Source: Eledone cirrhosa (lineage: Eukaryota). From it: a stretch of DNA of 64,000 nt. Shown here one piece after another: positions 15,001-48,257 of the stretch; positions within the stretch are counted from its first letter, which is position 1; every line of letters starts with the position of its first letter. The stretch covers positions 372,001 to 436,000 of the forward strand of contig OZ024751.1 of assembly GCA_964016885.1 (NCBI GenBank), in the 5' to 3' direction. Made by a program: the position numbers and the translations under genes. Under the pieces are notes generated by a model. The model was not told where the DNA came from, did not search any database, and saw only the letters and a list, made by a program, of their open reading frames with translations.

Positions 15001-18000
15001 TGTAGTAGGGACAGGTTGAGTGTGGGTAATGTAGTAGGGACAGGTTGAGTGTGGGTAGTGTAGTAGGGACAGGCTGAGTGTGGGTAGTGTAGTAGGGACA
15101 GGTTGAGTGTGGGTAGTGTAGTAGGGACAGGTTGAGAGTGGGTAGTGTAGTAGGGACAGGTTGAGTGTGGCTAGTGTAGTAGGGACAGGTTGAGTGTGGC
15201 TAGTGTAGTAGGGACAGGTTGAGAGTGGGTAGTGTAGTAGGGAGAGGTTGTTGTGGGTAGTGTAGTAGGGACAGGTTGATGTGGGTAGTGTAGTAGGGAC
15301 AGGTTGAGTGTGTGGGTAGTGTAGTAGGGACAGACAGGTTGATGTGGGTAGTGTAGTAGGGACAGGTTGTTGTGGGTAGTGTAGTAGGGACAGGTTGAGT
15401 GTGGGTAGTGTAGTAGGGACAGGTTGAGTGTAGGTAGTGTAGTAGGGACAGGTTGAGTGTGGGTCGTGTAGAAGGGACAGGTTGAGTGTGACTAGTGTAG
15501 TAGGGACAGGTTGAGTGTAGGTAGTGTAGTAGGGACAGGTTGAGTGTAGGTAGTGTAGTAGGGACAGGGTAAGAGTGGGTAGTGTAGTAGGGACAGGTTG
15601 AGTGTAGGTAGTGTAGTAGGGACAGGTTGGGTGTGGCTAGTGTAGTAGGGACAGGCTGAGAGTGGGTAGTGTAGTAGGGACTGGTTGAGTGTGGGTAGTG
15701 TAGTAGGGACAGGTTGAGTGTGGGTAGTGTAGAAGGGACAGGTTGATTGTGGGTAGTGTAGTAGGGACAGGTTGATTGTGGGTAGTGTAGTAGGGACAGG
15801 CTGAGTGTGGGTAGTGTAGAAGGGACAGGTTGATGTGGGTAGTGTAGTAGGGACAGGTTGAGTGTGGGTAATGTAGTAGGGACAGGTTGAGTGTGGGTAG
15901 TGTAGTAGGGACAGGCTGATTGTGGGTAGTGTAGTAGGGACAGGTTGAGTGTGGGTAGTGTAGAAGGGACAGGTTGAGTGTGGGTAGTGTAGTAGGGACA
16001 GGTTGAGTGTGGGTAGTGTAGTAGGGACAGGTTGAGTGTGGCTAGTGTAGTAGGGACAGGTTGAGTGTGGCTAGTGTAGTAGGGACAGGTTGAGAGTGGG
16101 TAGTGTAGTAGGGACAGGCTGTTGTGGGTAGTGTAGAAGGGACAGGTTGATTGTGGGTAGTGTAGTAGGGAGAGGTTGTTGTGGGTAGTGTAGTAGGGAC
16201 AGGTTGATGTGGGTAGTGTAGTAGGGACAGGTTGAGTGTGTGGGTAGTGTAGTAGGGACAGACAGGTTGATGTGGGTAGTGTAGTAGGGACAGGTTGTTG
16301 TGGGTAGTGTAGTAGGGACAGGTTGAGTGTGGGTAGTGTAGTAGGGACAGGTTGAGTGTAGGTAGTGTAGTAGGGACAGGTTGAGTGTGGGTAGTGTAGA
16401 AGGGACAGGTTGAGTGTGACTAGTGTAGTAGCGACAGGTTGAGTGTAGGTAGTGTAGTAGGGACAGGTTAAGTGTAGGTAGTGTAGTAGGGACAGGGTAA
16501 GAGTGGGTAGTGTAGTAGGGACAGGTTGAGTGTAGGTAGTGTAGTAGGGACAGGTTGGGTGTGGCTAGTGTAGTAGGGACAGGCTGAGAGTGGGTAGTGT
16601 AGTAGGGACTGGTTGAGTGTGGGTAGTGTAGTAGGGACAGGTTGAGTGTGGGTAGTGTAGAATGGACAGGTTGATTGTGGGTAGTGTAGTAGGGACAGGT
16701 TGATTGTGGGTAGTGTAGTAGGGACAGGTTGAGTGTGGGTAGTGTAGTAGGGACAGGCTGTTGTGGGTAGTGTAGAAGGGACAGGTTGATTGTGGGTAGT
16801 GTAGTAGGGACAGGTTGTTGTGGGTAGTGTAGTAGGGACAGGTTGATGTGGGTAGTGTAGTAGGGACAGGTTGAATGTGGGTAGTGTAGTAGGGACAGAC
16901 AGGTTGATGTGGGTAGTGTAGAAGGGACAGGTTGATGTGGGTAGTGTAGTAGGGAAAGTTTGATGTGGGTAGTGTAGTCGGGACAGGTTGATGTGGGTAG
17001 TGTAGTAGGGACAGGCTGAGTGTGGGTAGTGTATTAGGGACAGGCTGAGTGTGGGTAGTGTAGTAGGGACAGGTTGAGTGTGGGTAGTGTAGTAGGGACA
17101 GGTTGAGTGTGGGTAGTGTAGTAGGGACAGGTTGAGTGTGGATAGTGTAGTATGTACAGGTTGAGTGTAGGTAGTGTAGTAGGGACAGGTTGATTGTGGG
17201 TAGTTTAGTAGGGACAGGTTGTTGTGGGTAGTGTAGTAGGGACAGGTTGAGTGTAGTGTAGTAGGGACAGGTTGAGTGTGGGTAGTGTAGAAGGGACAGG
17301 TTGAGTGTGGCTAGTGTAGTAGGGACAAGCTGAGAGTGGGTAGTGTAGTAGGGACTGGTTGAGTGTGGGTAGTGTAGTAGGGACAGGTTGAGTGTGGGTA
17401 GTGTAGTAGGGACAGGTTGAGTGTGGGTAGTGTAGTAGGGACAGGTTGAGTGTGGGTAGTGTAGTAGGGACAGGTTGATTGTGGGTAGTGTAGTAGGGAC
17501 AGGTTGAGTGTGGGTAGTGTAGTAGGGACAGGTTGAGTGTGGGTAGTGTAGTAGGGACAGGTTGAGTGTGGGTAGTGTAGTAGGGACAGGTTGATTGTGG
17601 GTAGTGTAGTAGGGACAGGTTCAGTGTGGGTAGTGTAGTAGGGACAGGTTGAGTGCGGGTAGTGTAGTAGGGACAGGTTGGGTGTGGCTAGTGTAGTAGG
17701 GACAGGCTGAGAGTGGGTAGTGTAGTAGGGACTGGTTGAGTGTGGGTAGTGTAGTAGGGACAGGTTGAGTGTGGGTAGTGTAGAATGGACAGGTTGATTG
17801 TGGGTAGTGTAGTAGGGACAGGTTGATTGTGGGTAGTGTAGTAGGGACAGGTTGAGTGTGGGTAGTGTAGTAGGGACAGGCTGTTGTGGGTAGTGTAGAA
17901 GGGACAGGTTGATTGTGGGTAGTGTAGTAGGGACAGGTTGTTGTGGGTAGTGTAGTAGGGACAGGTTGATGTGGGTAGTGTAGTAGGGACAGGTTGAATG

Positions 18001-18706
18001 TGGGTAGTGTAGTAGGGACAGACAGGTTGATGTGGGTAGTGTAGAAGGGACAGGTTGATGTGGGTAGTGTAGTAGGGAAAGTTTGATGTGGGTAGTGTAG
18101 TCGGGACAGGTTGATGTGGGTAGTGTAGTAGGGACAGGCTGAGTGTGGGTAGTGTATTAGGGACAGGCTGAGTGTGGGTAGTGTAGTAGGGACAGGTTGA
18201 GTGTGGGTAGTGTAGTAGGGACAGGTTGAGTGTGGGTAGTGTAGTAGGGACAGGTTGAGTGTGGATAGTGTAGTATGTACAGGTTGAGTGTAGGTAGTGT
18301 AGTAGGGACAGGTTGATTGTGGGTAGTGTAGTAGGGACAGGTTCAGTGTGGGTAGTGTAGTAGGGACAGGTTGAGTGCGGGTAGTGTAGTAGGGACAGGT
18401 TGAGTGTGGGTAGTGTAGTAGGGACAGGTTAAGTGTGGGTAGTGTAGTAGGGACAGGTTGGGTGTGGGTAGTGTAGTAGGGACAGGCTGAGTGTAGGTAG
18501 TGCAGTAGGGACAGGTTGATTGTGGGTAGTGTAGTAGGGACAGGTTGAGTGTGGCTAGTGTAGTAGGGACAGACAGGTTGAGTGTGGGTAGTGTAGTAGG
18601 GACAGGTTGAGTGTGGGTAGTGTAGTAGGGACAGGTTGAGTGTAGGTAGTGTATTATGGATGGGCTGAGTGTGGGTAGTGTAGTAGGGACAAGCTGAATG
18701 TGGGTA
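1..18706. repeat. 29-bp tandem satellite, consensus CAGGTTGAGTGTGGGTAGTGTAGTAGGGA (27-33 bp variants), begins before the window
   Basis: Uninterrupted tandem array seen directly; last units (18650-18706) are degenerate. The ORFs called here are translations of the repeat. Confidence 0.98.
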
Positions 18707-21179: not shown

Positions 21180-22273
21180 TTAATTGTAAGTTGTGATGTT
21201 GCTGTTCCACTCATGTTTTCTATTTAATTTTGGTTGTAATTCTTTTATGTTTATTGCCTCTGTGATTTGTCTAAACATTGCGTCTTTTCTGTGTGTAGAT
21301 TCTATTTTTATTTCTATGTTCTCTAATTTAGCCTTATGTTCTATTTTAGCATGTTGGTAGAGTACGGATGATTCTTTACTATCTTGAAGGTCTCGCCAGT
21401 GTTCAGTTATCCGTTCCCCTACACTACGAGCTGTCTCACCTATGTACACTATATTTTTATCTCTACATTGTCCTTCAGTACATCTTATGCTATATACTAC
21501 ATTTCTAGTTTTACAGTTAATATGGGGGCTTAATTTACAGGTTATACATTTCTTATCTATACAGGGGGGGGGGGGGGTCTTTGGAAAGGGTTTGTCTTGC
21601 TAATAAGTGTTTTTATGGAGGTACCTGGTCTTTCTACTATCTTAATATTGAGTTTATGTTTATCTAGGGCCCTTCTAAATTTGTAAGCTAATTCACCTCT
21701 AGGGGTTGTATCGATGAACATTACACTCTGGTATTTATTGCTATCATACCATGAGTTTATTCTATTAGCCTTATTCCTAGTTCTTTCTATTCTATTCCAA
21801 AATTTGCTCCTATACAAGGAGCAGGTCCCATTTGTGTCATTATTTACCATTTTTTCCCATTTGGTTCTGGCTCCTCTATACACTCTAATTTTATCTCTCT
21901 GATTGTAACCAGAGAACTGCATACGGTGGATGAAGTGTTGTATGTGTCTCTCTAGTTCTTCGGGGTTGCACATGCGGGACACGTTTCTCATCACCCGTAC
22001 CAAATCCGCAATCAGTATGTGATTTTGGTATGGTCCGAAACAGCTGAGTTTCGGTGGATCAGATATTTGGAAGTCATGGGTTTGGCATAATGGGAATGGA
22101 GGATTTGTTTTTTGTTATTAATGGTATCTAACCAGAGCTCTGTGTCTAGTACAGGTAATCGATGGTTGGGGTGTTTGCTTGGGTAGTCTATAGTAACTCT
22201 AATATTCTGGTGGATGGAGTTAGCTATTTGCTGGATGATTTCCATTGTGTTTTTCTCTAATTCCTGACTGTTC
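21180..22273 (-). pseudogene. PLE RT C-terminus/thumb + GIY-YIG endonuclease, frameshifted
   Basis: ORFs 22012-22413 (in part), 21557-22003 and 21180-21449; one frameshift lies at the poly-G run near 21565. Confidence 0.85.
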
Positions 22274-22436
22274 AGAGTGTATAGAGGAGCCAGAACCAAA
22301 TGGGAAAAAATGGCAAATAATGACACAAATGGGACCTGCCCCTTGTATAGGAGCAAATTTTGGAATAGAATAGAAAGAACTAGGAATAAGGCTAATAGAA
22401 TAAACAAAAACACAAAAACAAAGAAAAGAATCCCCA

Positions 22437-22479
22437 GTCACTGAAGAGGTCACAGAATGTGTGACGAAAGAACTTTGAC
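22437..22479 (+). ncRNA. Type I hammerhead ribozyme in right pLTR arm
   Basis: GTCA-CTGAAGA-gGTCACagaatgtGTGAC-GAAA-gaac-TT-TGAC. Confidence 0.8.
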
Positions 22480-22842
22480 AATATATAAACAACCATATGG
22501 TTGTGGAACCAACCAACGAACCGGAAATTTATAAATTCCTAAATTCCTAAATTTATTATAATAAATTGATGTGAAAGCAATTGGTGCGTGTGTTTCTTAT
22601 TGGCAAAATGACCCTCCCAAAGTATAACAATATCGGTTTCACCACACGTTTTCAGATAAAGAATCTTGCTAAACATATCCAGAAACGATATATATATATA
22701 TATATAAATAAATATATATATAAATAAATATATATATATAAAATAATTTTACATTACTCCGGAGTAACCAAACCAACCTGCGCACTTCGTCGAGTGCTCC
22801 AGCCTGCATACTGAGGTGTTGGTATACAACCGACATAAACTA

Positions 22843-23300: not shown

Positions 23301-23450
23301 AAACTCATCACTATAACAGCCATTAAAACTCATCACTATAACAGCCATTAAAACTCATCACTATAACAGCCATTAAAACTCATCACTATAACAGCCATTA
23401 AAACTCATCACTATAACAGCCATTAAAACTCATCACTATAACAGCCATTA
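23301..23450. repeat. 25-bp minisatellite AAACTCATCACTATAACAGCCATTA x6
   Basis: Perfect tandem copies seen directly. Confidence 0.95.
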
Positions 23451-23454
23451 AAAC

Positions 23455-25763
23455 AGCCAAATGCTATCAATGCCAGCTTCACAATACCCTTTTTTACTAC
23501 CCTTTATCCTCCGACCCCACTCCTGGCTACCAACAACTCGTGTCCTCCACCATCCATGAGCTCATCTCATCCTCTCACCTACCCCCCACAGCCACCAACC
23601 TTATTGTACGCACCCCTCGCACACCCACCATCTACTTCCTCCCCAAAATACACAAACAAAATAATCCTGGCCATCCTATCGTTTCTGCGTGCAACTGCCC
23701 CACTGAGATAATTTCTGAATGTTTAGACACCATCCTCACCCCGTTGGTCGGCAATCTCCCCTCCCACATGCACGATAGAAATCCTGCCCTTAGACTTTTG
23801 AACTCTTTCTCCTTCCCTCCTGGTCCCTCCCAGCTTCTCTTTACCCTGGACATCACTTCTCTCTATATCGTCATCCCTCATGATGATGGCCTCCGTGCTC
23901 TCCAACATTTTTTAGATTTACGCCCTACCCCTTACTCCAGCACTACCACTCTTCTCCGTCTGGCTGAGCTTGTTCTTACCCTTAATGGATTTTCTTTTTC
24001 AGGTGATTTTTACTAGCAGGTCTCTGGGGTAGCGATGAGAATCAGAATGGGTCCAAACTATGCCAACCTGTTTGTTGGCTACGTCGAAGCCCAGATCTTC
24101 TCCCAGTACGCTGAACCGACTCCTGAGCTATACGGTTGTTATATCAACGACTGTATCAGCGCCACCTCTCTATCACGAGAACAGCTCAACTGTTTTCTTT
24201 CTTTTGTCCAATCTTTCCATCCTGCTCCCAATTTCACTGCCCCCGTCTCCGATTCTTCTGTCGCTTTTCTAGATATCTCTCTATCTATTAATCACTCTCA
24301 CCACACCCTCTCTACTTCCATCTACATTAAACCAACAGACTCCCAATCTTACCTCGACTTCGCCTCCTCCCATCCAACCGAAACCAAACACTCCATACCC
24401 TATTCCCAATTCCTCCATCTTCGTTGACTCTGTAGCCAGGACAACGATTTCAAAACCCATTCGCTTCCCATGGCATCCTGCTTCATCCAGCATGGATATC
24501 CCCCCCACCCTGATCCAAGCTGCTCTCACCCGCACCCGTGAAACAGACTGCACCACAGCCCTCTTATCTCACCCCTGCCCTCCCAATACCCGTGTTCCTT
24601 TCTCTCTCACCTACCATCCCATCACTCTACCACTCCGGCGACATATCCTCCGTTCCTTCTGTATCCTCTCTTCTGACCCCGTCACTTCTTGCTTTTTTCC
24701 AAATCCACCCATTACTGCTTTTAAGCGCACCCGAAACCTCCGCGACCTCCTGGTTCGCAGTTCTTTTTCGTCCTCTCCCACGACTCCACCCAGCTCTCAT
24801 CCTTGTTCCCGTTCCTGCTGCAACACTTCTCCCTTTATTTCCACCCTCACCACTCTTACAGGCCCTAACGGGTCTTTCTTTATCCGCCATTCCTTCACCT
24901 GCACATCCACCCACGTTGTCTATGCCCTCCGGAGTTCCCTTTGCGGGTCTTTATATATCGGACAAACGGGACGCCGTATGGCGGACCGTTTTGCCGAACA
25001 TTTGAAGGACATCAGACTCAGTTTGGATACCACTGTCGCTCATCATTTCTGTTCTCATGGTCATTCTTCCCTACATGTTTCAGTCCTGGATCACAGGCCT
25101 CGCGCACCAGGACTGAACAAAGTCTGATTCACCGTCTTGGGTCCTATTCCCCTCTTGCACTCAACTCACCTCCCCAATTTCTCTAATACCCCGTCCATTA
25201 TCCCACCCCTTGATTCCTATCGCTTTCTCTTGATCATTAGCAGCTTCTATTACTACTAATACATGCCGATACACACCCTTATATTAACATACTTTTCCTT
25301 ATAGCTTCGTACTTACATGCACACACACTCTTTTACTCACATATACACACACATTTCTTCTTAGCTTCGTACGGACCTATAATAACACACACACACATAC
25401 ACACACTAACTCATGCTTACGCACGTGCTCAAGTATAGCTCTTTTTACAAAACGTTTTTTTTTTCCATTTCAGGTAGACGCCTGCCATCATCCACTTTTC
25501 TAAAAGACAAATCATACACAAAATGCCAGCACCAACAGTTTTGCAAGAGATGTCAACATGAATGGACCTGTTATTTTTATCTAAAGACATTTCTTCCAAT
25601 TCCAACCCGCCCGTCCCCTCAATCTATTTTATTTCTCATTCTTTCTTCTGATGAAGGACTAGCGTCCAAAACGTTAAGACCCTCTTCTTGCTATATCAAG
25701 CGTTAACCTAATATATACCTTCCATATACTCTACCGATTGTGTTGTTATTTCTGTTTACCTTT

Positions 25764-26001: not shown

Positions 26002-27002
26002 TGAAGACTAAAATCCAAAGAGCGCTCGATAAGGATAAATATATATCAAATATATAAGAACCGTAGAGCAAATATTTATTAAAATAACAGATTAAAGTTT
26101 AAGCAAAGAATCGCTGCTTAACAGGATCTTCTGAAACTAACAAAGTCAATCTGTGAACGCAGAAGTGAATATTTAAAAAAAACGTTGCAACCGGAGGAAG
26201 ACAGGAAGACGATACTTTGGTTCGTGGAAACGTTCCCTGGCAAAGAACGGGAAAAAACGAATATAATACGTCATTATTAGGAATGGTGAAAAACAATTAC
26301 ACGCAAAGAGAAAACTACGTTTATGGTATAAAAGAAGTCGTAGACTAATATTCTATTAGGTGATTCATAGAGACATTCTCTGGCAATGAACGGAAAAAAC
26401 GAAGATAATACGTCATATGTGGAGCGGGGAGAACAATTGAACGCAAAGACACACATGCGTATGCTTGTGTATGTACGTATATGGATGTGTGTATGTATTT
26501 ATTTAATTTCAATTACCTCTGTATTTTATTTACTTTATTCTTAACTCTGAAGCCGAGAATCATTCGGTTTCCTAGTTAGAATTTTAGTCTACGACTTCAG
26601 TTATACCATTTACGTGTCTTTGTGTGCAATTGTTCTCCCCGCTCCACGTATGACGTATTATCTTCGTTTTTTCCATTCATTGCCAGAGAACGTCTCTATG
26701 AACCACCTAAAAGAATATTAGTCTACGACTTCTTTTATACCATAAACGTGGTTTTGTCTTTGTGTGTAATTGTTTTTCACCGCTCCTAATAATGACGTAT
26801 TATATTCGTTTTTTTCCTGTTCTTTGCCAGGGAACGTTTCCATGAACCAAAGTATCGTCTTCCTGTCTTCTTCCGGTTGCAACATTTTTTTTAAATATTC
26901 ACTTCTGCGTTCACAGATTGACTTTGTTAGTTTCAGAAGATCTCGTTAAGGGTGAAAGCAGCGATTCTTTGCTTAAACTTTAATCTGTTATTTTAATAAA
27001 TA
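26002..27002. mobile_element. Large fold-back insert (arms ~26074-26453 / ~26613-27002) in (TA)n, probably inverted PLE pLTRs
   Basis: ~380-bp highly similar inverted arms, ~160-bp spacer, ~70-nt unpaired left tail, hammerhead-like fold near the arm ends. Confidence 0.8.
26929..26979 (+). ncRNA. Hammerhead-like motif with variant core CAGAAGA
   Basis: AGTTT-CAGAAGA-tCTCgttaaGGGt-GAAA-GCAgcgattcttTGC-TT-AAACT. Confidence 0.6.
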
Positions 27003-27016
27003 TATATATATATATA

Positions 27017-28945
27017 CTCGACCGAGAACTCCCCAAGGCCTACCTCCATCTCTCCCCAACTTGCCACCCCCTCCTCGCCCAATCCCTTATCCAATTCATC
27101 CTTTACCTCAATCACCTCCTCTTCAATGTCCTCACTTCCATTAAAAACAACAAACTTCACTCACTCTACTCCCTGCCTGCCGTCACCACCCATATTCATT
27201 TCACCTCCAACCCTAACCACTCCATCTCGTCACCTACCATCCCCTTTCCTCTCCCCGCCGCTGAATCTGCACACGCTTTGCCCAACCACCTTAACCCCTC
27301 CGCCTCCACCACTTTCACTCCCTCACGTCCCTCCACTGTAGTCACAATACCCCAGGATCTACCACTCTCCAAAGCTGAGCGTTCCCTCCTTGCGCAAGGT
27401 TTGCGTTTTATGCCAACCACATCAAACTGCAACGAGTTCCGCATATGTACCAAGATTGAAGGGTTCTTCCGTTGACTAAAGCTCAAAGCTTTTTTCCACG
27501 ACACGCCATCTTAGACACAAATGGATGGCAGCACTCGTCTCAGTTGCCGGCAATCACATTGGACGCCAAGCTCTAGCCAGTTCAGCACTCTCGACTCCTT
27601 TGTCGATACTTGCTGACGTACTGTGAACCAGTTCCATTTCCACCAGCATTCTTGTAGCTCTAATATTATGTGGGCTGAGCTCTCCACTCTTTGCAACCTA
27701 CACCTCCCATCCAACCCACACCAAACACTCCATAGCCTATTCCCAATTCCTCCATCTTCATCGGCTCTGTAGCCAGGACGACGATTTTGAAACCCATTCC
27801 CTTCACATGGTTTCCCATTTCATCCAGCATGGATATCCCCCCACCCTGATCCAAGCTGTTCTCACCCGCGCCCGTGAAACCAACCGTACGACAGTCCTCT
27901 CACCTCACCAGCACCCTGCCAACACCTGCCTTCCTTTCCTTCTCACCTACCACCCCATCACCCTACCACGCAGTTTTTTCTTGCCCTCTCCTACAACTCC
28001 ACCCGGCTCTCATCCTTGTTCTTGTCCCCACTGCAACACTTGTCCTTTCATTTCCACCCTCACAGGCCCTAACGGGTCATTCCGTGTCCGTCACTCCTTC
28101 ACCTCCACATCCACCCACGATGTCTATGCCCTCCAGTGTTCCCTTTGCAAGTCCTTATACATCGGACAAATGGGCATATGGCAGCCCGTTTTGCTGAGCA
28201 TTTGAGGGACATACGACTCGGTTTGAATACTCCTGTCGCCCATCATTTCTGTTCTCCTGGTCACTCTTCCCTACATGTCTCAGTCCAGGCCTCGCACACC
28301 AGGACTGAACAGAGTCTGATTTACCACCTTGGGTCCCATTTCCCTCATGGATTCAACTCACCTCCCCAATTTCTTTAATACCCCATTCATTATCACACAC
28401 GCACTTGTACATTCACCCCTAGATTCCTATGGCTCTCTTATGGTCAGAAACATATTCTCTTACAACTAATACTGACCAGCAAAATACGCACACAATTCTT
28501 TTCCCTTCACAGCTCTGTATACACACATACACACCCTTATATTAACATACTTTTGCTCATAGCTTCATACTTACAAGCACACACACACTCTTTTACTTAT
28601 ATATACACACACACATATATTTTCTTAGCTTCGTACAGACGTATAATAATACACACGCACACATGCAAACGCACGTGCAGACATATAGATTTTTATACAA
28701 AACAGTTTTTTTCCATTTCAGGTAGATGCGCTCCATCATCCACGTTACTAAAAAAATTAATCATACGCAAAACGCCAGCACCAACAGTTTTCCAAGAGAT
28801 GTCAACATGAATGGACCCGTTATTTTTATCTAAAGACTTTTTTCCAATTCCACCCCACCCGTCCCTTCAATCTATCTTATTTCTCGTTCTTTCTTCCAAT
28901 GAAGTTAAGACCCTCTTCCTGCTATTTCAAGCATTAACCTACTGC
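27017..28945 (+). mobile_element. Second Neptune-like PLE with the RT core internally deleted
   Basis: N-terminal motif LSKAERSLLAQGLRFMPT...FFR joins near 27700 to sequence homologous to 24361 onward (thumb, GIY-YIG, pLTR). The hammerhead segment is deleted near 28900. Confidence 0.85.
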
Positions 28946-29914: not shown

Positions 29915-29949
<35 letters not shown>

Positions 29950-29954
<5 letters not shown>

Positions 29955-30215
29955 TATTAAAAAAATAATGAATAAACAAAGAAACAGTTCCTTATATTAA
30001 ACAAAAAAAGTTCATTATTTAACTTTTTTTGTTTAATATAAGGAACTGTTTCTTTGTTTATTCATTATTTTTTTAATAATTTATCTTGACTCTGTTTTCC
30101 GTTTATCTTTCACCGAAAGTGATTTTTGAATGCATCTCTTCTTTTCATGATATCCGGATTACATTGAGTTCTTCATACGGATTGGACACTACCGTAAACT
30201 TTTGGTAGATTTATC

Positions 30216-30220
<5 letters not shown>
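29950..30220 (+). mobile_element. Solo fold-back pLTR fragment of the family at 31743-38733
   Basis: 30021-30220 is similar to 31970-32161; 29950-30020 is an inverted copy of its 5' part; (TA)n on both sides. Confidence 0.9.
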
Positions 30221-30275
<55 letters not shown>

Positions 30276-31436: not shown

Positions 31437-31553
<117 letters not shown>

Positions 31554-31818
31554 CGAAGGAAAAGTGGTAAGGAACCAGGTGGACCATAACGCACCAAAGT
31601 ACTCAATACTTAGGGTAGTAGAGTGGGTAATAGGAACGAGTAGGACTCCAACGGCTGAGCTCAAGCCGTTTCGACGGCTAATTCTGGACTCAGAATTGAG
31701 TCCAGAATTAGCCGTTGGGGTCCTACTCATTCCTATATATGTTTTTAACCCTTTGTGTTTTCATTGGTCAATTTTGAACTGATATTTTGAATTGTTGTTA
31801 TTATCAATAAATATACTT

Positions 31819-31969
31819 CATTATTTCTGAAGACGGCGTATATATGTGTTAGGTATGTATATTTAATCTTGATAATTTGTATAATTTTGTATAATTTTGT
31901 ACATAGATCTGTTGAATATGCATACCAAGTATAACACATGTATACCCTAGAAACGATCGTTAAATAATG
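31819..31969 (+). ncRNA. Type I hammerhead ribozyme with ~116-nt stem II (5' pLTR)
   Basis: CATTATTT-CTGAAGA-[31834-31949 long hairpin]-GAAA-CGATCG-TT-AAATAATG. Confidence 0.75.
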
Positions 31970-32314
31970 AACTTTTTTTGTTTAATATAAGGAATTGTTT
32001 ATTCATTATTTGTTTAATATTTTATCTTGACTCTGTATACCGTTTATCTTTCACCGAAAGTGGATTTTCATTACATCTCTTCTTTCCATGATATCCGGAA
32101 TACATTGAGTTCTTCATACGGATTGGACACTACCGTAAACTCTTGGTAGATTTATCTACATAATTTTGCTCCTATTTTCACGGAAATATTCGTATTTTTG
32201 TACTGTATGTGTGTATTAATTTTATATTTATGTATAAACATATATATATGTATGATTTTGTAAACCCATATACATTTAGTTGAGCTCTTTCAATTGTCCA
32301 TCATCCATATCACA

Positions 32315-34756
32315 ATGGAAAAACAATATTTAGGAACCTCCTTAAAAAACATACCAATACCTTCTAAGGACGACTTCTTACTCCTTATGATTCAGAAAAC
32401 TAATAATTTTATCAGAAGGGTTAGATGGAGAGCCTACCACTTCGATAGAAAATCTAAACAAGCAGATCGGAAATATATGTATGATTTCAATACTTACAAG
32501 AATCCACCACACAACTTTTTACTTGAAGACTTCGAGAAAGACCTTTTTAATTTAATTAAACACCTCAAATTTAAAAAGTATAAATCCGTCTTTCAAAAGG
32601 ACCTTGATTCTACCCTATTGGACCTAAAAAAGTCTAAAAAAATCCATGTCCACTCGGACAAAACTGGTAACTTGTATCATATGGATATTGAACATTATAA
32701 TGAGTTCATATATAAAGAACTCAGAAAAAATTATAAAAAATCTAATAATGTGTCACTCACCAACATCAACAACAAAACACACAACATAGTAAAAAAACTA
32801 AACATTGAAGATAGAACTGAACCTTTGGCATTGAAAAGACCACACTTCAACCTGAAAGATCACAAATCTAACTTTAACTCTAATCCTTCTATTAGACTTA
32901 TATGTCCCTCCAAATCAGATATTGGAATAATTAGCAAAAAAATTTTAGATAGAGTCATCCCACAAATAAGAAAACACGTTATTTTACCACTCTGGGAAAA
33001 CACCTCCCAGGTAATTAACTGGTTTAAAAATATTAGGTGTAAATCTTCTGCTTCTTTCCTACAATTTGATATAGATAATTACTATTCTTCTATATCACCT
33101 ATACTCCTGAACAAAGCATTAATATTTGCTAAAAATAGATCTAATTTAACTTCGGATGACATTAACATTATTACACATGCTAGACTAACACTTATTGAAT
33201 TTCAGAATGAATACTGGACCAGAAACACATACAGTAATCTTTTTGATATTACTATGGGTTCAAGCGATTCCGCCCAAATTACTGATCTTGTGGGCCTCTT
33301 TCTCCTTTTCAACATAAATGCCTCTTTTCCCCACCTCAAAGGTGGTTTATATCGTGATGACTGTCTTCTTCTTTCTAACAACCTTAGCCTTTCAGAAATC
33401 GAAAAAAACAAAAAACATATTAGAACTTTCCTTAAAGACTATTATAATCTTAATATTACTTTTGAAAAAACAAGTAAAGTAGTAAATTTCCTAGATATAA
33501 CTTTAGATTTAGCTACAGGTATATACCAACCTTACCATAAACCTAACCAAAACTTACATTACATACACTCACAATCTAATCACCCTAAATCTATCCTTAA
33601 AAACCTTGCATATAATATATCACTTAGAATTTCTAACCTTTCTTCTAACCAAGATGTATTTGATAAAAATGCGACCTTTTATAATGAAGCTCTAGATAGA
33701 AGTGGCCACAAAAATAGATTAGAGTATATACCTTCTACTAAAAATACTGAAAGCATACAGCATAATATTACCAACAAACACCAAATGAAAAGTACACACC
33801 TAAATGCCACCCACAATATACCCCAAAATACTAAATCTTATAATATAAAGTATAGTAACCCTCAAAAAACTACTCATCATACAACTATAATAAATATTAA
33901 TAATAAAACTCCTAATAAAAAAGATAAAACACCTAAATCTACAAATATAACTAAAAATAGTTGTGGTGAGATCATTAACATTAATCCTCCTAGTAAAAAT
34001 CATGATACAACCTATAAAAATAATAAAAATAATAAACAACATAGAAACCGTAATAGACGAGTTACTTGGTATAATGCTCCTTTTAATTTACAAGTTAAGG
34101 ATAATATTGCTAAAAAATTTTTTTATATCCTTGAGAAAAACTTCCCGCCAAACCACAAATACCATCAAATCTTAAATAGGTCTACAGTTAAATTCTCATA
34201 CTCTACAACAAATAACATAAAACAAAATATAAGTGCATATAATGCATATAAATGTAAGAAAACCATAAGTATACCACCATTACATCAAATTAACAATAAT
34301 ATCTCCTCAAATACAGAATTAACGAAAGGATGTAACTGTAGAAACAAAACAAACTGCCCATTAAAAGGGAATTGTCTTGTTAACAACATAGTCTATAAAT
34401 GTAATGTTAAAACTAAAGATTCTATTTGCTCATATATAGGAGCTACCTCTAACAATTTTAAGACAAGGTTTAATACCCACAAGCATAGTTTTAAAAATGC
34501 CGCACTGGCTAATACAACATCTCTAGCAGAAAAAATCAATAGTTATAAAAATAAGAATATAAAATATGATTTGACCTGGAGTGTGCTCAAAAGAGCCACC
34601 CCTTATCAAAATAATAGAAAGGAATGTAGATTATGTTCCCAAGAACTATTTGAAATAATGAAGTCTAAGGATATCTTATTAAATAAACGACAGGAATTAA
34701 TTATATCGTGTAATCATAAACTAAAAAAAACATTTAAATATTATAAACCTAATTAA
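32315..34756 (+). CDS. PLE polyprotein: reverse transcriptase + C-terminal GIY-YIG endonuclease (813 aa from the first ATG)
   Basis: SLKNIPIP..FIRRVRWRA, RLICPSKSDIG, FLQFDIDNYYSSI, TMGSSDSAQ, GLYRDD, NFLDITL, SNHP, CNCRNKTNCPLKGNC, NIVY...YIGAT...KTRFNTH, CRLCSQE, LLNKR. Confidence 0.93.
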   Translation: MEKQYLGTSLKNIPIPSKDDFLLLMIQKTNNFIRRVRWRAYHFDRKSKQADRKYMYDFNTYKNPPHNFLLEDFEKDLFNLIKHLKFKKYKSVFQKDLDSTLLDLKKSKKIHVHSDKTGNLYHMDIEHYNEFIYKELRKNYKKSNNVSLTNINNKTHNIVKKLNIEDRTEPLALKRPHFNLKDHKSNFNSNPSIRLICPSKSDIGIISKKILDRVIPQIRKHVILPLWENTSQVINWFKNIRCKSSASFLQFDIDNYYSSISPILLNKALIFAKNRSNLTSDDINIITHARLTLIEFQNEYWTRNTYSNLFDITMGSSDSAQITDLVGLFLLFNINASFPHLKGGLYRDDCLLLSNNLSLSEIEKNKKHIRTFLKDYYNLNITFEKTSKVVNFLDITLDLATGIYQPYHKPNQNLHYIHSQSNHPKSILKNLAYNISLRISNLSSNQDVFDKNATFYNEALDRSGHKNRLEYIPSTKNTESIQHNITNKHQMKSTHLNATHNIPQNTKSYNIKYSNPQKTTHHTTIININNKTPNKKDKTPKSTNITKNSCGEIININPPSKNHDTTYKNNKNNKQHRNRNRRVTWYNAPFNLQVKDNIAKKFFYILEKNFPPNHKYHQILNRSTVKFSYSTTNNIKQNISAYNAYKCKKTISIPPLHQINNNISSNTELTKGCNCRNKTNCPLKGNCLVNNIVYKCNVKTKDSICSYIGATSNNFKTRFNTHKHSFKNAALANTTSLAEKINSYKNKNIKYDLTWSVLKRATPYQNNRKECRLCSQELFEIMKSKDILLNKRQELIISCNHKLKKTFKYYKPN

Positions 34757-35214
34757 TAACATTATTCTAGAAATTAATTTAATTTAAATGTTAGTTAACC
34801 TATAAATTTAATTTAATTAATATTTTATTACAGATGAGAAAATATTATGTAATCATAAATTGTGAAAAACCTTTAAATATTACTAATATATACTTAGTAA
34901 TTTAATTTATAGATTAATTTTAATTTATTTAAACCTTTTATTATAATTCTTTTACAGATAAAATATAACAAAATAATATCATGTATCCAATGACAGAGAA
35001 ATAATTTTTAGTATTATAGACCTAATTAATATACATTTTGGAAATATATTTATTATTTGGTTTTAGTTTTAATCAACCTAAAAATTTTAATTTTAATTTG
35101 CTTAAAATTAGTATCCTTATACAGACGAATTGCAGAATGTCATGTAATCATAGAATGGGATGTGTTTTGGATATATACCTAGTTAATATATTCTGTGCAA
35201 TTTTTTGAAAAAGA

Positions 35215-35285
35215 TATGTATATGTATATGTGTATGTATATGTGTGTGTTGTGTATGTGTATCTGTATGTATGTATATATGTGTA

Positions 35286-35330
<45 letters not shown>

Positions 35331-36482
35331 ATATGTATGTATATGTGTATGTGTATGTATATGTATATGTATGCGTATTAATTTTGATTTCTATTTGCAT
35401 ATAATTATATTATGCTATTGATGAAATACAATATCTGCTTTATGTATTGTATACCTAATTAACATATACTAATTAACGTATACTATTGAAATAAATATAT
35501 AATTTTTAATTTAGTTAACATATAATTTATATGCTACTACCGATGTAATACTTTATTTTATTTTTATTTGGGTTTCTTTTCCCTATTACTAAATTCATCT
35601 CCTAATATTGATACCATAACGTTATTAACTTTAATTTAGTTATACTGTAATTAATAATCTACTACTGTTTGACTTCAAAATTCTGCTTCAAATATTATAA
35701 ACCTAACTAATTTACACCTTAGAAATCAATATGTTGACTATCTTTGGTTTAGTTAACATATGATTAATGGTATACTTATTTATTTTGAGATGCATAGATT
35801 TCGTATTTCCTAGCACTGAAAATATGTAAGAACATACATTGAATTAAGATACGGAAAATATTATATGTTTCTTGAAACATATATTTACTTTGATCCCCTT
35901 CTCCAAACCCCCCCTTTCCCCCATACTATTATCATCTGTATTTGTAAGCGTCTATGTATGAATATATATGTAGGTAGGTGTCTATATAGGTTTGGGTATT
36001 TATATCTAAATATAAAAATACATATATGAGCATGCAAATATGAATGTAAGATTGCGTGTGTATATATGATTGTACATATATATGTATGTATATATATGTA
36101 TATATATGCATTATATATGTATGTGTATGTGAATGTGTTGTATGTATATGTGTATGTATGTGTATATATGTGTATGTATGTGTATGCTTGTATATATAGG
36201 AATATATATATGTGTATATATGTATGTATATGTATATGCGTGTATGTATGTATGTGTATGTGTGTTGTGTATATATATGTATGTCTCTCTATTTATATGT
36301 TTATCTTCGTATCTATGTGATATATGTATGTGTGTGTGCACGTATGCATATGTATGTGTTTGTGTGTGTTTGTATGTGTGTGTGTATATATGTGTATGTG
36401 CGCACACACACATACACATATATATATATATATGTGAGTGTGTATGTGTGTCTGTGTGTGTGTGTGTGTGTGTATGTATATG

Positions 36483-36518
<36 letters not shown>

Positions 36519-36627
36519 GATATATATATATATATATATAGGTGTCTATGTGTGAATATATGTCTTTATTCGTATGTGTGTATTTATGTATGTATATGTT
36601 TATGTGTATGTATGTATGTGTATGTAT

Positions 36628-36659
<32 letters not shown>

Positions 36660-36826
36660 GTATATGTATATATATATATGTATATTATTCTTTATTATTA
36701 TAATATAACTTATGTGTATATGTGTATAAGTGAGGTTGTGTATGTATATATAATATGTGTATATATAAGAGTAATAAAATATATATATATATATATATGT
36801 GCATGTCTGTTTTTTATGTGTGTGTG

Positions 36827-36861
<35 letters not shown>

Positions 36862-37363
36862 GTATATACGTGTGTGTATATAGAGATATATATATATATA
36901 CATGTGGGTGTTTGTATGTGTATTTATGGTGGTATGAGTGTGGATATATATGTTTATATATATATGTATATATATATATGTATGAGTCTATGTGTGTGTA
37001 TATATGTGTATATATGTGTATATATATATATATATATATGTATGTGTATATGTATGTGTGTATATATATATATATGTGTATGTATGTGTGTATATATATA
37101 TATCTCTATTAATGCGTGTGTGTATGTATATACATATGCCTTTTTATTATTATTTTTATTTGTATGTCTGAGTTTGGTGAGGTTGTATTGTTTTTTATGT
37201 ATATACACATATATGGAAGCGTATGTATTTATATATATGAGTATAAGTAGGTGCATATGTATGTATGATTATATATCTAATTCTATGTATGAAGGTACAT
37301 CTATATATATATATATAAGTGTGTATGTAAGTTGTGTGTGTATGTATCTATATGTCTATGTGA

Positions 37364-37407
<44 letters not shown>

Positions 37408-37496
37408 CGATGTGCGTATATGTATGTACATGTATGTACATGTATGTGTGTATGTATGTGTATGTATATTTAGATGTATGTGTATGTATGTGTATA

Positions 37497-37549
<53 letters not shown>

Positions 37550-37800
37550 ATATATATATATATGGATATATATCTTTATTATCTATTTTTTATATATATG
37601 TGTATGTGTGTATGTGTTGCGCGTGTGTGTGTGTATATATATATCTTTTTATATTTTTATATGTGTATGTGTATGTTCGTGTAAGTGTATGTGTGTGTAT
37701 GACTGTATATGTATGTGTGTATGTGTGTATGCGTAAATATTTCTATGTGCGCGTACATGCATGTATGTGTGTATATATATCTGTATGTGTATGTATATTA
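35215..37800. repeat. Cryptic (TA)/(TG)/(TATG) low-complexity tracts (35215-35375, ~35950-37800) lying between the PLE ORF and its 3' pLTR
   Basis: Seen directly. Confidence 0.9.
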
Positions 37801-38389
37801 TATTATATTTATTATATTTTATTTTTTTATTGTTTTATTTTTTTATTTTTCTTAATTTATAGATACATTTATATTAGGCAGTCTGCTCAGACAATTGAAT
37901 ACTGACCCCTCCCCCCCCTCCCACCTAATTTCTGTATCTTGATCTTGAAATGTGTGTGCCAGTGTTTTATGTGAGTGATTTAATTTCTATGTGCTTATGA
38001 TTTTATATCCACATATATAAATGTGAGTGGGGGTGTGTGTGTGTTTGTATGTTCGTGGTTATGTGTATATTTATGCATATACGCGCATGTATGTGTGATT
38101 ATACTGATATGTGTGAGTATGAAAAAATATATTTATATGCTTGACTCCATAAGTATCAATGCGCATCTTATCAGCGCATTTTGAGCTTACAGAGATATTA
38201 ACCTTGAAATTTTGTGTTTGCATCCATCTTTTTAGTATGCGTATACAAATTATACACACATTTCTGTAAAATATGTGTAAGGATTTTACATGTATATACA
38301 CACACCGAACTGCTTTTAACCCTTTGTGTTTTCATTGGTCAATTTTGAACTGATATTTTGAATTGTTGTTATTATCAATAAATATACTT

Positions 38390-38540
38390 CATTATTTCTG
38401 AAGACGGCGTATATATGTGTTAGGTATGTATATTTAATCTTGATAATTTGTATAATTTTGTATAATTTTGTACATAGATCTGTTGAATATGCATACCAAG
38501 TATAACACATGTATACCCTAGAAACGATCGTTAAATAATG
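38390..38540 (+). ncRNA. Same extended-stem hammerhead in 3' pLTR
   Basis: Appears identical to 31819-31969. Confidence 0.75.
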
Positions 38541-38727
38541 AACTTTTTTTGTTTAATATAAGGAATTGTTTATTCATTATTTGTTTAATATTTTATCTTG
38601 ACTCTGTATACCGTTTATCTTTCACCGAAAGTGGATTTTCATTACATCTCTTCTTTCCATGATATCCGGAATACATTGAGTTCTTCATACGGATTGGACA
38701 CTACCGTAAACTCTTGGTAGATTTATC

Positions 38728-38776
<49 letters not shown>

Positions 38777-43035: not shown

Positions 43036-46000
43036 CTACTGGCTGCTTTTCGATATGAGGGATGGAGTAAGGAATTTCTGGAGAGTCTGAAGAATCTGGA
43101 CACTCGATGACAATGCCAAAGATAACGACAAATTCACCTCATGCTGCCGGACGAAGGGGCAAGGCCCCCCCCCCCTCTTTGTTTCGGCCGCGGATGGCCA
43201 ACATAACCCCAAACTCATTCCCCTCACCCCTCCCTGTGCCCCATCCTCCAAACACAATCCAAAACTTCAGAGTTGGTACCATGAACGTAGGCACCTTAAA
43301 AGGCCGCTCTAACGAGGTTGTAGAATTGCTTGAACGTAAGGAGGTTGATGTTTGCTGTATCCAAGAGACCAGGTGGAGGGGCGGGTCTGCTAGATTCATT
43401 GTGGGTAAAAAACGTTGCTATAAGCTTTTCTGGGTGGGGAATGACAATGGGATAGGTGGGGTAGGAATCATGTTAGCAGAAAAATGGGTGGATAAGATAA
43501 TAGATGTAAATAGAGTGAATGACAGAATAATTAAAATAAGACTTGTTCTAAACAGAACTACTGTGACAGTAATATCTGCATACGCGCCCCAATCAGGACT
43601 GCCTGGCGCTATAAAAGACAGATTCTATGAGACACTGATGCTCACTACCTCCCAAATAACCGACAGTGACTATATAATTATTGCTGGCGACCTAAATGGT
43701 CACGTTGGACAACATTGTGACGGCTATGACGGAATCCACGGAGGCTATGGGTTTGGTACTAGAAACGAGGAAGGCTCCAGAATCCTTGAATTCTGTGATG
43801 CAAACAACCTAACTATCTGTAACACTAACTTCAAAAAACGAGACAATCACTTGATCACCTACAGATCAGGAGAACATACCAGCCAGGTAGATTATATCCT
43901 TACCAGAAGACGTGACAGAGTGTCTGTTGTAAACACTAAATCCCTCCCCCATGAAGAATGCACCTCCCAACATAGACTTATAATTAGCGACCTCATAGTC
44001 AGGACGAGACGTACTAGACAGCAGAAGAGGACTATCCTCAGGAGAAAAATATGGAAGCTAAAGGATCCCACAGCCAGAAATAAATTTCAAAGCATATTAC
44101 TTGATGCTTTCGACAGTAAGGAAGAGCAATTAGAGTCGTACAAGGTAGAGGAACAGTGGGAATTCCTGAAAGCAAACCTGCTGATGGCGGCAGACGAAGT
44201 CTGTGGCTGGAGCAGGCCTGTAGGCAGGAGGAGAGTAACATGGTGGTGGAACAGTAAGGTGGAGGGGTAAATCAAGGCCAAAAAGCAGGCTTGGAAAGCA
44301 TGGCAGGATGGGGGAAGTAGAGAAGACTATCAAGTGGCCAGGAGGGAAGCTAGGAGACAAGTGTACTTCGCAAGAAGGGAAGCAGAGGAAAGAAAGTTCA
44401 AGCATGTTCTACAACGCGAGGACCAAAAACGTGAGGTGTTCAGGATTGCTAGGCAATGTGTCAAGGAAAACCGTGATATTGTCGGGGAGAAATGTGTACT
44501 TAATGATGATGGTGTACTTGCCATCACTGACGCTGATAAGAAGGTAGTTTGGAAGTGTCACTACGAAAGGCTACTAAATGAGGAGAATAAATGGGAGAAA
44601 GACAGTCTCCTTCACATCGACCCAATAGAGGGACCAGCAGTGTTAGTCGAAGGTAGTATAATAAGTAAGGCAATCAAAGATATGAAGACGGGTAAGGCGG
44701 CTGGGCCTTCGGAAATAGTTGCTGAGATGCTGAAAGCCTCCGGTACGGTGGGACACACCATGGTCACCCGGATAGTAAACCAAGTCATACAGAATGGGGT
44801 TGTTCCGAAGGACTGGCGTAGCAGTATCATCGTTAACTGTTACAAGGGTAAAGGAGACGCCCTAGATAGGAGTAACTATAGAGGCATTAAATTAATCGAC
44901 CAGGTCATGAAGGTCACGGAAAAAGTAATAGCGCAACTAATCAGAGAGAGAATTGATCTAGATGAAATGCAGTTCGGGTTTGTGTCAGGCAAAAGTACCA
45001 CAGACGCTCTTTTCATTGTACGACAACTACAGGAGAAGTACCTAGCTAAAAGTAAACCCCTATACTTAGCTTTTGTCGACTTCGAGAAAGCCTTCGACAG
45101 AGTCCCTCGTTCCATTATCTGGTGGGCTCTTAGAAAACTAGGTGTTGACGAATGGCTTGTGAGAGCCATACAAGCCATGTATAAAGAAACAGTCAGCAAG
45201 GTTAGAATTAACAACGAATATAGTGAAGAGTTTAGCGTAAAAGTTGGTGTCCATCAGGGCTCTGTTCTTAGCCCCCTACTAATTATTATTTCCCTTCAGG
45301 CTATAACAGAGGAGTTCAAGACCGGCTGCCCATGGGAACTCCTATACGCAGATGATCTAATGCTCATAGCTGAATCAATGGCCGAGCTAGAGAAGAAATT
45401 CCAAACATGGAAGCACGGCCTAGAATCAAAAGGCCTTAAAATTAACCTGGCTAAGACTAAAGTTCTAGTTTGTAGGAAAGAAAATAAGGCGCCGGTCCCC
45501 TCCGGGAAATGGCCATGCTCAGTGTGTAGGAAAGGCGTAGGTAGAAACTCCATTTTATGTCCCAAATGCAAAGTATGGGTGCATAAAAGATGTAGTGGGA
45601 TCACAGGTAAGCTAACTAAGAACACAGATTTTACATGTGGCCGGTGCTCTGGTGCAATAAGTAGCAGCAAGTGCCCACAGAATACTAGCTCTTTCAATTG
45701 CGTAGAGGGTTCTATAGAAATAGTGGACAGCTTCCGTTACCTGGGTGACAAAATCAGCAGTGGGGGAGGGATGCTCTGAAAGTACAGTAGCTAGAGTCAG
45801 AACTGGATGGAAAAAGTTCAGAGAGCTTATACCACTATTAGCTGCTAAAGGGTTCTCCCTAAAAATGAAAGGCAGGTTGTATGATGTCTGCATACGAACA
45901 GCAATGTTGCATGGCAGTGAGACCTGGGAATTGTGTGCAGAGGATATACGCAGACTAGAGAGGAACGAAGCTTGCATGCTCCGCTGGATGTGTAATAGTA

Positions 46001-46797
46001 ATATACGTGAACGGCAAAGCATAAACGAACTAAGGAAAAAATTAGAAATAAGAGGGATCAGATGTTGTTTACTCGAGAGAAGGCTACGTTGGTATGGTCA
46101 CGTGATGCGCATGAAAGACGACAGCTGTATAACAAAGTGCAGGGCAATAAAGATACATGGTAGCCACGGAGTAGGCAGACTCAGGAAAACCTGGGACGAG
46201 CTGATAAACTCCGACCTCACACACTTGCACCTCTCCAAGACAATGTCACTGGACCGAGACCTTTGGCGGTACTCAGTAACAGAGAAGACCCGCCTTACCT
46301 AAATACAAAGTAAAACCTACTACAGTCAGTAGGCATCTCTAACAAAATACACCCCCGTCCCACCACCCACACCCCATCCACACCGCCCCCTTCAATGCAA
46401 AGTTATGTTGGTGCCACAACATCCAGGCCGAAACAAATGAGATCGTGTAGGTGTCACGACAAAAAACACACAGTCACGCTGTAATCTGGCCGTGTAGGCA
46501 ACACGGTAAAAACCTCCCAGTCCCACACTGTAAATGTGGTTGGTGTTAGGAAGGGCATCCAGCTGTAGAAAACACGCCAGACAGTCCACGCTGTAATGTG
46601 GCCATGTAGGCAACACGGTAAAAACCTCCCAGCCCCACACTGTAAATGTGGTTGGTGTTAGGAAGGGCATCCAGCTGTAGAAAACCCGCCAGACAGTCCT
46701 ATGCGGGCAAGACAACCACTCTTGCTTCAAGTGGGAAAACCCCCGTCCAAACCCATGCAAGCGTGGAACAGGGACGTTAAACGATGATGATGATGAT
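43036..46797 (+). mobile_element. Near full-length RTE-clade LINE (APE, RT, PHD-type finger, 3' UTR, (GAT)n tail); 5' boundary approximate
   Basis: APE motifs TMNV, IQETRW, SAYAPQ, GDLNGH, VDYIL, SQH; RT motifs QFGF, VDFEKAFDRV, GVHQGSVLSP, YADD, YLG; ~110-bp duplication in the 3' UTR. Confidence 0.95.
43107..46302 (+). pseudogene. RTE ORF2 with one in-frame TAA (44268-44270) and one +1 frameshift (~45765)
   Basis: ORFs 43107-44270 and 44334-45779 are in the same frame, and the paralogue at 48260 reads through the stop position (KVDEAIK). ORF 45745-46302 continues the protein in the +1 frame. Confidence 0.9.
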
Positions 46798-48212: not shown

Positions 48213-48257
48213 ATGAACATACATATTCATATACATACATCAGAGGATGAGATAGAT

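Follow-up and report, generated by a model that had tools for sequence, protein, structure and literature searches.

Predicted type I hammerheads with a long, structurally selected stem II in a Hydra-clade family of Penelope-like elements

Hammerheads are already known from the pseudo-LTRs (pLTRs) of Penelope-like elements (PLEs), and both their role there and the retention of introns by PLEs are questions of the field. A sequence-only reading of the window (the whole 64,000-nucleotide stretch of DNA analysed here) had proposed a hammerhead with an exceptionally long stem II at positions 31819-31969. This raises the question of whether a stem of that size is a genuine part of a hammerhead, and what it might do there. 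All of the named stems, the core and the palindrome were present when every pair was checked, and the architecture is as follows.

31819-31826, + strand: stem I, 5' strand
31827-31833, + strand: core C3-U4-G5-A6-N7-G8-A9 (U3-A8 in subfamily F)
31834-31837, + strand: base of stem II, 5' side, forming C.A, R-U, G-C and C.C with 31946-31949
31838-31851, + strand: 5' arm of the lower long helix, partner 31932-31945; letters swap and pairing is kept across subfamilies
31852-31866, + strand: 5' arm of the upper helix, partner 31912-31926; contains the donor-like G/GTATGT at 31852/31853
31912-31945, + strand: 3' arms of the upper helix (anti-donor) and the lower helix, with a 5-nt bulge at 31927-31931
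31950-31961, + strand: G12-A13-A14, palindromic stem III ACGATCGT (31953-31960) and N17; predicted cut after 31961
31962-31969, + strand: stem I, 3' strand

Stem I (31819-31826 with 31962-31969) is Watson-Crick in 8 of 8 pairs. The lower helix, 31838-31851 with 31932-31945, holds 13 Watson-Crick pairs and one G-U, and the upper helix, 31852-31866 with 31912-31926, holds 13 and two. The core consists of CUGAAGA (31827-31833) and GAA (31950-31952), N17 is U31961, and the insert between A9 and G12 measures 116 nt (31834-31949). C3UGANGA9...G12AA, A15.1-U16.1, an N17 other than G, three helices with stem I open, and covariation were all found, as is characteristic of type I. The sense strand gave a fold z-score of -5.9, with none of 200 shuffles as good, and the antisense -3.2. 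On this evidence of sequence, the structure is a type I hammerhead of both pLTRs. The three G-U pairs described earlier are all present, but T31843.G31940 is not the family state, since A occupies that place in 27 of the 30 closest loci. Similarly, a 10-nt repeat does lie in the loop at 31864-31901, but the TATAATTTTG duplication is confined to subfamilies A/B. As had been anticipated of standard searches, the Rfam hammerhead families gave no match to 31740-32165 even at E<=10, which we attribute to the 116-nt insert.

The window also holds a second hammerhead and an intervening retrotransposon, both absent from the sequence-only reading. The two hammerheads lie 6,571 bp apart, each inside one copy of a 423-bp direct repeat.

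31740-38733, + strand: full-length Hydra-clade Penelope-like element, pLTR-ORF-3'UTR-pLTR (5' edge within about 3 nt)
31740-32162, + strand: 5' pLTR, 423 bp, 99.8% identical to the 3' pLTR
32315-34756, + strand: 813-aa ORF with RWR, DKT, YRDD, an N/K/H-rich insert, a CxCX5C linker, YIG and CxxC..E..N..CxH
34757-38310, + strand: 3' region, 3,554 nt, GC 24%, with many simple repeats
38311-38733, + strand: 3' pLTR, followed by (TA)n; contains the other, identical hammerhead (38390-38540), whose predicted cut comes after 38532
29949-30221, no strand assigned: head-to-head mini-copy of a related subfamily inside (TA)n, with sequence from about 31959 onward only

The single ORF combines a reverse transcriptase (RT) with a C-terminal GIY-YIG endonuclease, as in EN+ PLEs, and the YRDD and YIG columns were conserved in an alignment of 20 proteins (the window protein and 19 of 118 homologues). 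Its RWR, SDKT, CNCRNKTNC and CRLC..E..N..CNH motifs correspond to the Hydra-clade diagnostic set (alignment compared with PMC8557442, in part). No Pfam family matched the ORF at E<=0.01. The pLTRs, partial tandems, inverted 5'-truncated copies and optional tail are likewise those of a PLE, and the majority of 94 classed 3' ends run into (TA)n, with four entering the body of an element. By its sequence the element is therefore a young Hydra-clade PLE representing a new family; 146 scored ORF starts were 99-100% identical and mostly in long open frames, which indicates that the family is young. The genome (3.0 Gb) contains 14,874 occurrences of a 15-mer that spans the core's 3' half, as against two of the reversed control. 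The (TA)n bias had brought the Naiad clade into consideration, but a C-terminal endonuclease and Hydra-type motifs led to its rejection. A non-LTR retrozyme, whose hammerheads each sit in a non-coding tandem repeat unit of about 150-400 bp, was also set aside, the unit here being 6,571 bp long and coding and the mini-copies solo or head-to-head.

Other features of the window were noted in passing. The N/K/H-rich insert, about 90 aa between the RT thumb and the endonuclease (window ~33720-34060), resembles the asparagine-rich inserts of rotifer Penelope elements (PMC3846280, in part). A 190-bp repeat with nested inverted arms (31553-31739) abuts the 5' side of the element, and similar sequence lies near family copies in loci L007, L021 and L027. 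A 29-bp satellite array of about 647 copies with strong G-skew occupies 1-18706, and broken pieces of further GIY-YIG retroelements, together with LINE copies of the endonuclease-RT type, lie at 21180-22528 (-), 23417-25186 (+), 26984-28378 (+), 43071-46302 (+) and 48251-49700 (+), the fourth of these containing a PHD finger.

We then asked how widespread the long stem II is within the family and beyond. Genome-wide patterns requiring both core halves returned 9,658 copies with an 88-118-nt spacer, 22 with a medium spacer (40-68 nt) and four with a short one (3-33 nt; looser pattern), spacers of 34-39 and 69-87 nt falling outside the classes searched. All 26 shortened copies were mutually different deletions, and modal insert lengths were 99-116 nt. 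A metagenome scan that allowed inserts of up to 200 nt, and recovered both window copies as a control, found hammerheads in 57 of 77 Hydra-type loci; these comprised 56 distinct motifs with inserts of 10-25 nt. The hammerheads of Hydra-clade PLEs (Craig et al. 2021; PMC8557442, as far as its accessible text goes) are alike in pLTR position, type I topology, the AC...GU palindrome of stem III and frequent mismatch at the base of stem II, as are their elements in (TA)n targets and protein motifs. However, those elements are generally shorter than 3 kb, and in the 26 Hydra rows of File S2 of the same paper stem II has 3-7 bp and loops of 3-10 nt, whereas the unit here is 6.6 kb and the insert 99-116 nt. 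The longest PLE loops met in the literature were the 29-34 nt of spike-moss PLE-X (PMC8557442, in part). Minimal PLE hammerheads (Cervera and de la Pena 2014; PMC4209133, in part) also share a dimer-type palindromic helix III, the U3-A8 variant, a larger-than-usual helix II and low predicted monomer activity, but their large helix II is 6-8 bp long, compared with about 30 bp with conserved internal blocks here. In the portions of the PLE and hammerhead literature covered (including PMC3088659, PMC7229834, PMC13725137 and bioRxiv 10.64898/2026.07.22.740005, with the variant collection of Lunse et al. 2017 outside it), no PLE hammerhead was found with a stem II of this size or a donor inside it. 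Since stem II is four to ten times the clade norm and escapes Rfam, long-insert hammerheads have probably been undercounted. A long insert also splits the core halves of the mammalian discontinuous Clec2 hammerheads. Those differ in being type III, in lying in a host 3' UTR rather than a mobile element, and in carrying the insert in stem I.

To follow pairing across the family we collected 139 distinct haplotypes from loci L001-L278 (the first 100 matches on contig 1 plus sets picked by similarity; spacer 78-125 nt) and analysed 138, which fall into seven subfamilies, A-G (labels of this analysis), or about four lineages. RNAalifold on a MAFFT alignment recovered stem I and misaligned the unrelated lower helices, so stem II pairing was counted end-anchored from both sides. 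Stem II positions 5-11 paired in 86-100% of cells in all seven subfamilies with different letters; position 5, for example, is G-C, A-U, U-A or again G-C, and position 10 is U-A, A-U or G-C. Crossing the arms of A/C with those of F/G left 2-4 of 7 pairs, and crossing F with G left 5 of 7. Slid-register scores were high too (A-E at +/-2, F at +/-3) because the arms are repetitive (TA or TGA), which makes this control weak. Stem variants were of the G-U type in 20 cases and the A-C type in four, which points to the sense strand, and in subfamilies C and D the antisense folds as well as the sense. Among 12 representatives, stem I and the core yielded 11 double changes, one of them C3-G8 to U3-A8 in F, against 0 of 500 shuffles, a figure that kinship can inflate; subfamilies F and G were the source of most of them. 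The C3-G8/U3-A8 swap is known from schistosome PLEs (PMC4209133, in part) and was also seen in one metagenome relative. N17 was U or A, and never G, in 138 of 138 haplotypes. Stem I, the core and the lower helix thus covary across family copies, which together with the excess of G-U over A-C variants upholds the earlier view that the long stem II is a structure at the RNA level. We conclude that it is a family-wide, structurally selected variant of the known PLE hammerhead.

The same hairpin had been suggested to serve a second role as a pre-miRNA. A pre-miRNA or siRNA precursor, freed by cleavage as a capped 142-nt RNA, would suit its size and stability (z -5.9), and cleavage would release 31820-31961. 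However, the arms are the most variable part between subfamilies and exchange their sequences, so that a conserved mature arm was not found; the F and G helices are bulged, and Rfam miRNA matches are at chance level, with whole-window simple-repeat noise among the best 150 of 262 matches. We regard this role as hardly credible.

The base of stem II (C.A, R-U, G-C and C.C) is kept in nearly all haplotypes. Its C.A had been put forward as grounds for doubting activity, and in place of the canonical G10.1-C11.1 pair we indeed found C.A in 136 of 138 haplotypes. Among the 56 Hydra-clade motifs, however, 37 do not start stem II with G-C (first and last base; U.U in 21, C.A in 2), so G10.1-C11.1 is not a defining pair for the clade. 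Because C.A is near-invariant and mismatched bases are common in the clade, we do not read it as a sign of decay, and the doubt is weakened.

The ends of genomic copies were used to ask which RNA is made and copied. Copies frequently lose similarity close to the first base of the hammerhead:

31820, + strand: putative start of the capped transcript (TC-A-TT); hot spot for the 5' ends of mini-copies, where an extra G occurs

In the first 100 contig 1 copies, similarity was lost exactly at A31820 in 21 and at offsets 1-9 upstream of C3 in 39. Removal of six SINE insertions left 15 copies that stop at A31820 itself and 33 that stop at offsets 1-9; these 33 belong to 21 of 83 clusters, and none of them runs on into the element body. 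Genome-wide, the base preceding the junction was G or T in a ratio of 649:817 at A31820, compared with 50:387 one base inward. By eye, about half of 30 extra-G cases were clearly untemplated, and the others could derive from the inverted arm. An extra G is the signature of a reverse transcriptase copying a cap, and TCATT at the start presumably resembles an initiator. Transcription very probably starts at A31820, and the hot spot with its extra G suggests that the capped RNA likely opens with the hammerhead, its first part being stem I's 5' strand.

A SINE has inserted repeatedly into ATTATTTCTG in the 5' strand of stem I, with its target duplicated and the downstream hammerhead intact (L080, L047, L044, L126, L127 and L130; 6 of the first 100 copies). 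A SINE-hammerhead chimera was rejected because the SINE was inserted with target duplication; six of seven inspected loci retain upstream element sequence. Head-to-head mini-copies centred on the putative start (L068, L073, L140 and others) were also seen, some with two to three tandem repeats of the first 7-13 nt, which suggests re-priming by the RT at the RNA 5' end.

The mini-copy in the window hinted at a hot spot at the cleavage site, which was not found: no copy begins at 31962 among 97 downstream-anchored copies (of 100 listed) or 40 full-ORF copies. Five of the 97 end 3' of the GAAAC core, at scattered positions. The 40 full-ORF copies comprise 25 that reach beyond A31820 and 15 in which the core is missing from its expected position; a stop at +1 was seen in none of them. 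This suggests that long copies derive from templates of more than unit length (tandem read-through or circles). With no copy beginning at the cut site, reverse transcription likely uses uncut RNA as its template.

The 3' ends of the same 97 downstream-anchored copies fell at 32025 in 50, at 32162 in 44 and elsewhere in three. Each of the two main ends is followed by a bipartite hairpin.

32025-32113, + strand: short 3' end of copies at 32025, then bipartite hairpin motif 1 (GACTC at 32029 ... TTGAGTTCT at 32105); putative RT start 1
32162-32287, + strand: long 3' end of copies at 32162, then bipartite hairpin motif 2 (GCTCC at 32168 ... TTGAGCTC at 32280); putative RT start 2

We surveyed the 5' regions of 19 Hydra-type loci among L309-L385 for this hairpin, GCTC(C/T)...T(T/C)GAGCACT, between the hammerhead and the ATG. 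At least one was present in 18 of 19 loci, and two in 15 of 19. Hydra-type 3' junctions into (TA)n sit a few nucleotides upstream of either hairpin, as do the ends 32025 and 32162 of the window family. The hairpin interiors here, about 70 and 105 nt, are much longer than in relatives, and that of hairpin 1 is unrelated between subfamilies A, F and G. The twin hairpin near both 3' ends may be an RT start signal used across the clade, which would explain the tail. Poseidon_Ac of Anolis (Frangieh et al. 2024; PMC11167929, in part) is alike in having two RT starts that define the tail and an uncut RNA template, and shows no reads at the cut site, just as no copies start there in our family. It belongs to a different clade, its ORF starts in stem II and its tail is 30-40 nt, compared with 137 nt here.

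Does the motif cleave at all? In the minimum fold predicted from A31820, UUUCUG is paired with UAGAAA and the core is buried; the hammerhead fold lies 5.6 kcal/mol higher, and the palindrome is predicted at -10.0 kcal/mol as a duplex against +2.4 kcal/mol as a hairpin. On the simplest reading of these models, the monomer would be off and turned on by dimerisation or by a protein. Activation of this kind has been proposed for PLE hammerheads (PMC4209133 and PMC6765202, each in part), and the ribozyme of Poseidon_Ac needs protein (PMC11167929, in part). The core has probably been kept for catalysis, with slow cutting as a ACGAUCGU-palindrome dimer or with the assistance of the element's own protein. 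Alternatively, the motif may no longer cleave and may be a mere folded 5' leader or protein-binding site. The lack of copies starting at the cut site fits a ribozyme that cuts rarely or never, and both the predicted UUUCUG-UAGAAA pairing in the monomer and the C.A at the base of stem II are compatible with this. We nevertheless consider it very unlikely given the compensatory C3-G8/U3-A8 swap, the covariation of stem I and the invariant GAAAC palindrome; moreover, the Anolis PLE hammerhead, which cleaves with protein, leaves no such footprint either (PMC11167929, in part).

The interior of stem II contains three conserved blocks that form a possible intron or the start of one.

31853-31906, + strand: GT...AG segment with blocks GTAWGTA, TGATA.TTTGTA and TACATAG/ATC; candidate intron or beginning of one, 42-54 nt long depending on the subfamily

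The three blocks are nearly invariant while the lower helix turns over. In all seven subfamilies most sequences carry GTATGT or GTAAGT at +32 to +34, with the upstream bases free, and the mean unpaired probability of this hexamer in fold predictions is 0-0.04 (0.26 in F). A conserved GTAWGT that is predicted to be paired suggests a masked 5'-UTR splice donor. We propose tentatively that GUAWGU could be the donor of a 5'-UTR intron, hidden by pairing, such that an opened helix would give a translatable mRNA. The unspliced leader has ten upstream ATGs before the ORF. In Penelope of Drosophila virilis (Schostak et al. 2008, PMC2377424, in part; Cervera 2014), transcription also starts inside the pLTR, the donor lies a few dozen nucleotides downstream and intron and hammerhead overlap; its 75-bp intron, 46 bp after the start, is needed for expression. 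There, however, that intron's 3' terminus meets helix I and splicing has been shown, whereas here there is only a donor-like site within stem II, predicted and paired. An intron in Chlamys-3 spans the pLTR edge (PMC8557442, in part).

Several observations bear on this candidate donor. None of the 22 medium-spacer copies is a precisely spliced version of the short GT-AG segment, and a genomic join of the donor to 32280 gave no match. PLE genomic copies normally retain introns. In subfamilies A-E only about 19 nt separate the donor from the conserved TGAT, too small a distance for it to serve as a branch point, and the segment itself, at 42-54 nt, is short. Contigs of four runs of unspecified kind, aligned to 31740-33200, contained no GT-AG joint, their single joint being an exchanged interior of stem II; because contigs would miss starts, ends and rare forms, this carries no weight for splicing or cleavage. 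A strong donor was found in the 5' region of four of 19 relatives, and GTATGT is common in the AT-rich host genome. An acceptor-like TTTAG/TTGAGC at 32279, first read as a conserved 3' splice site, was downgraded because TTGAGC is half of the clade-wide hairpin; no joined copy was found. A distant Hydra-type locus with a short stem II (L315:48-250) carries a 57-nt GTATGT...TACATAG segment with TATTTTGTAATATTTT right after its hammerhead; its likeness to the conserved blocks may be chance.

The blocks of stem II could instead be internal-promoter elements or a protein-binding site, with the flanking helices folding the insert away so that the core can assemble. Block 1 does lie at a fixed distance, +32 to +34, from the putative start, the internal promoter of Penelope includes a downstream element in the same zone (PMC2377424, in part), conservation extends 3 nt beyond the AG, and spliced genomic copies are lacking. 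However, block 1 starts precisely with the GT and takes no forms other than GTATGT and GTAAGT, a word resembling a DPE was spotted by eye in subfamily G only, and an element acting as DNA would have no use for the anti-donor strand, yet each lineage keeps it. We judge this somewhat unlikely. Unlikely to a greater degree is tolerated accretion, in which all 5' hairpin loops and the 3' region have lengthened and selection merely keeps the additions paired, without a job of their own. This would account for both RT-start hairpins being much longer than in relatives, for the 3.5 kb of simple repeats in the 3' region and for the 20-63-nt inserts of other hammerheads met by chance in the same genome. 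But the interior of hairpin 1 is unrelated in A, F and G whereas the three stem II blocks are nearly invariant, and the shortened stem II copies are all one-offs.

The masked-donor reading can be combined with the ends of copies into a single model. The capped RNA would start with the hammerhead at its very 5' end, and cutting at both hammerheads would free a 6,571-nt unit, possibly circularised. The RT would start just upstream of the two conserved hairpins and, on the capped RNA, would reach the cap after 206 or 343 nt, giving mini-copies. The long stem II would hide the donor and so leave RNA uncut and unspliced for reverse transcription. For this reading as a whole, a 5'-terminal hammerhead that is off as a monomer and whose stem II masks a donor to preserve an uncut, unspliced template, we see the balance as even. 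The further step, that one hairpin sets the fate of the RNA (folded, it would be unspliced and copied, or dimer-cut and circularised; open, it would be spliced mRNA), is more doubtful. If true, it would be a concrete RNA switch that explains how PLEs keep introns through an RNA intermediate. About ten thousand copies are available in this family, along with many intact ORFs and several lineages in which compensatory changes have arisen naturally, and the genome itself marks the probable site of the cap, both RT starts and a template left uncut. Should the masked donor prove real, a 500-nt reporter would allow a direct test of how ribozyme fold, splicing and retrotransposition are linked.

Two further observations concern hammerheads outside the window family. 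On the minus strand of L238, at about 510-600, lies a member of another, unrelated hammerhead family that shares the ACGATCGT palindrome and has a 63-nt stem II and no donor-like motif. Contigs from two other studies (runs X5/X6, coded organisms B and C; kind unspecified, low share) cover parts of the long stem II; in one of them the stem II interior is replaced and measures 77 nt, and other species may therefore have the long form too.
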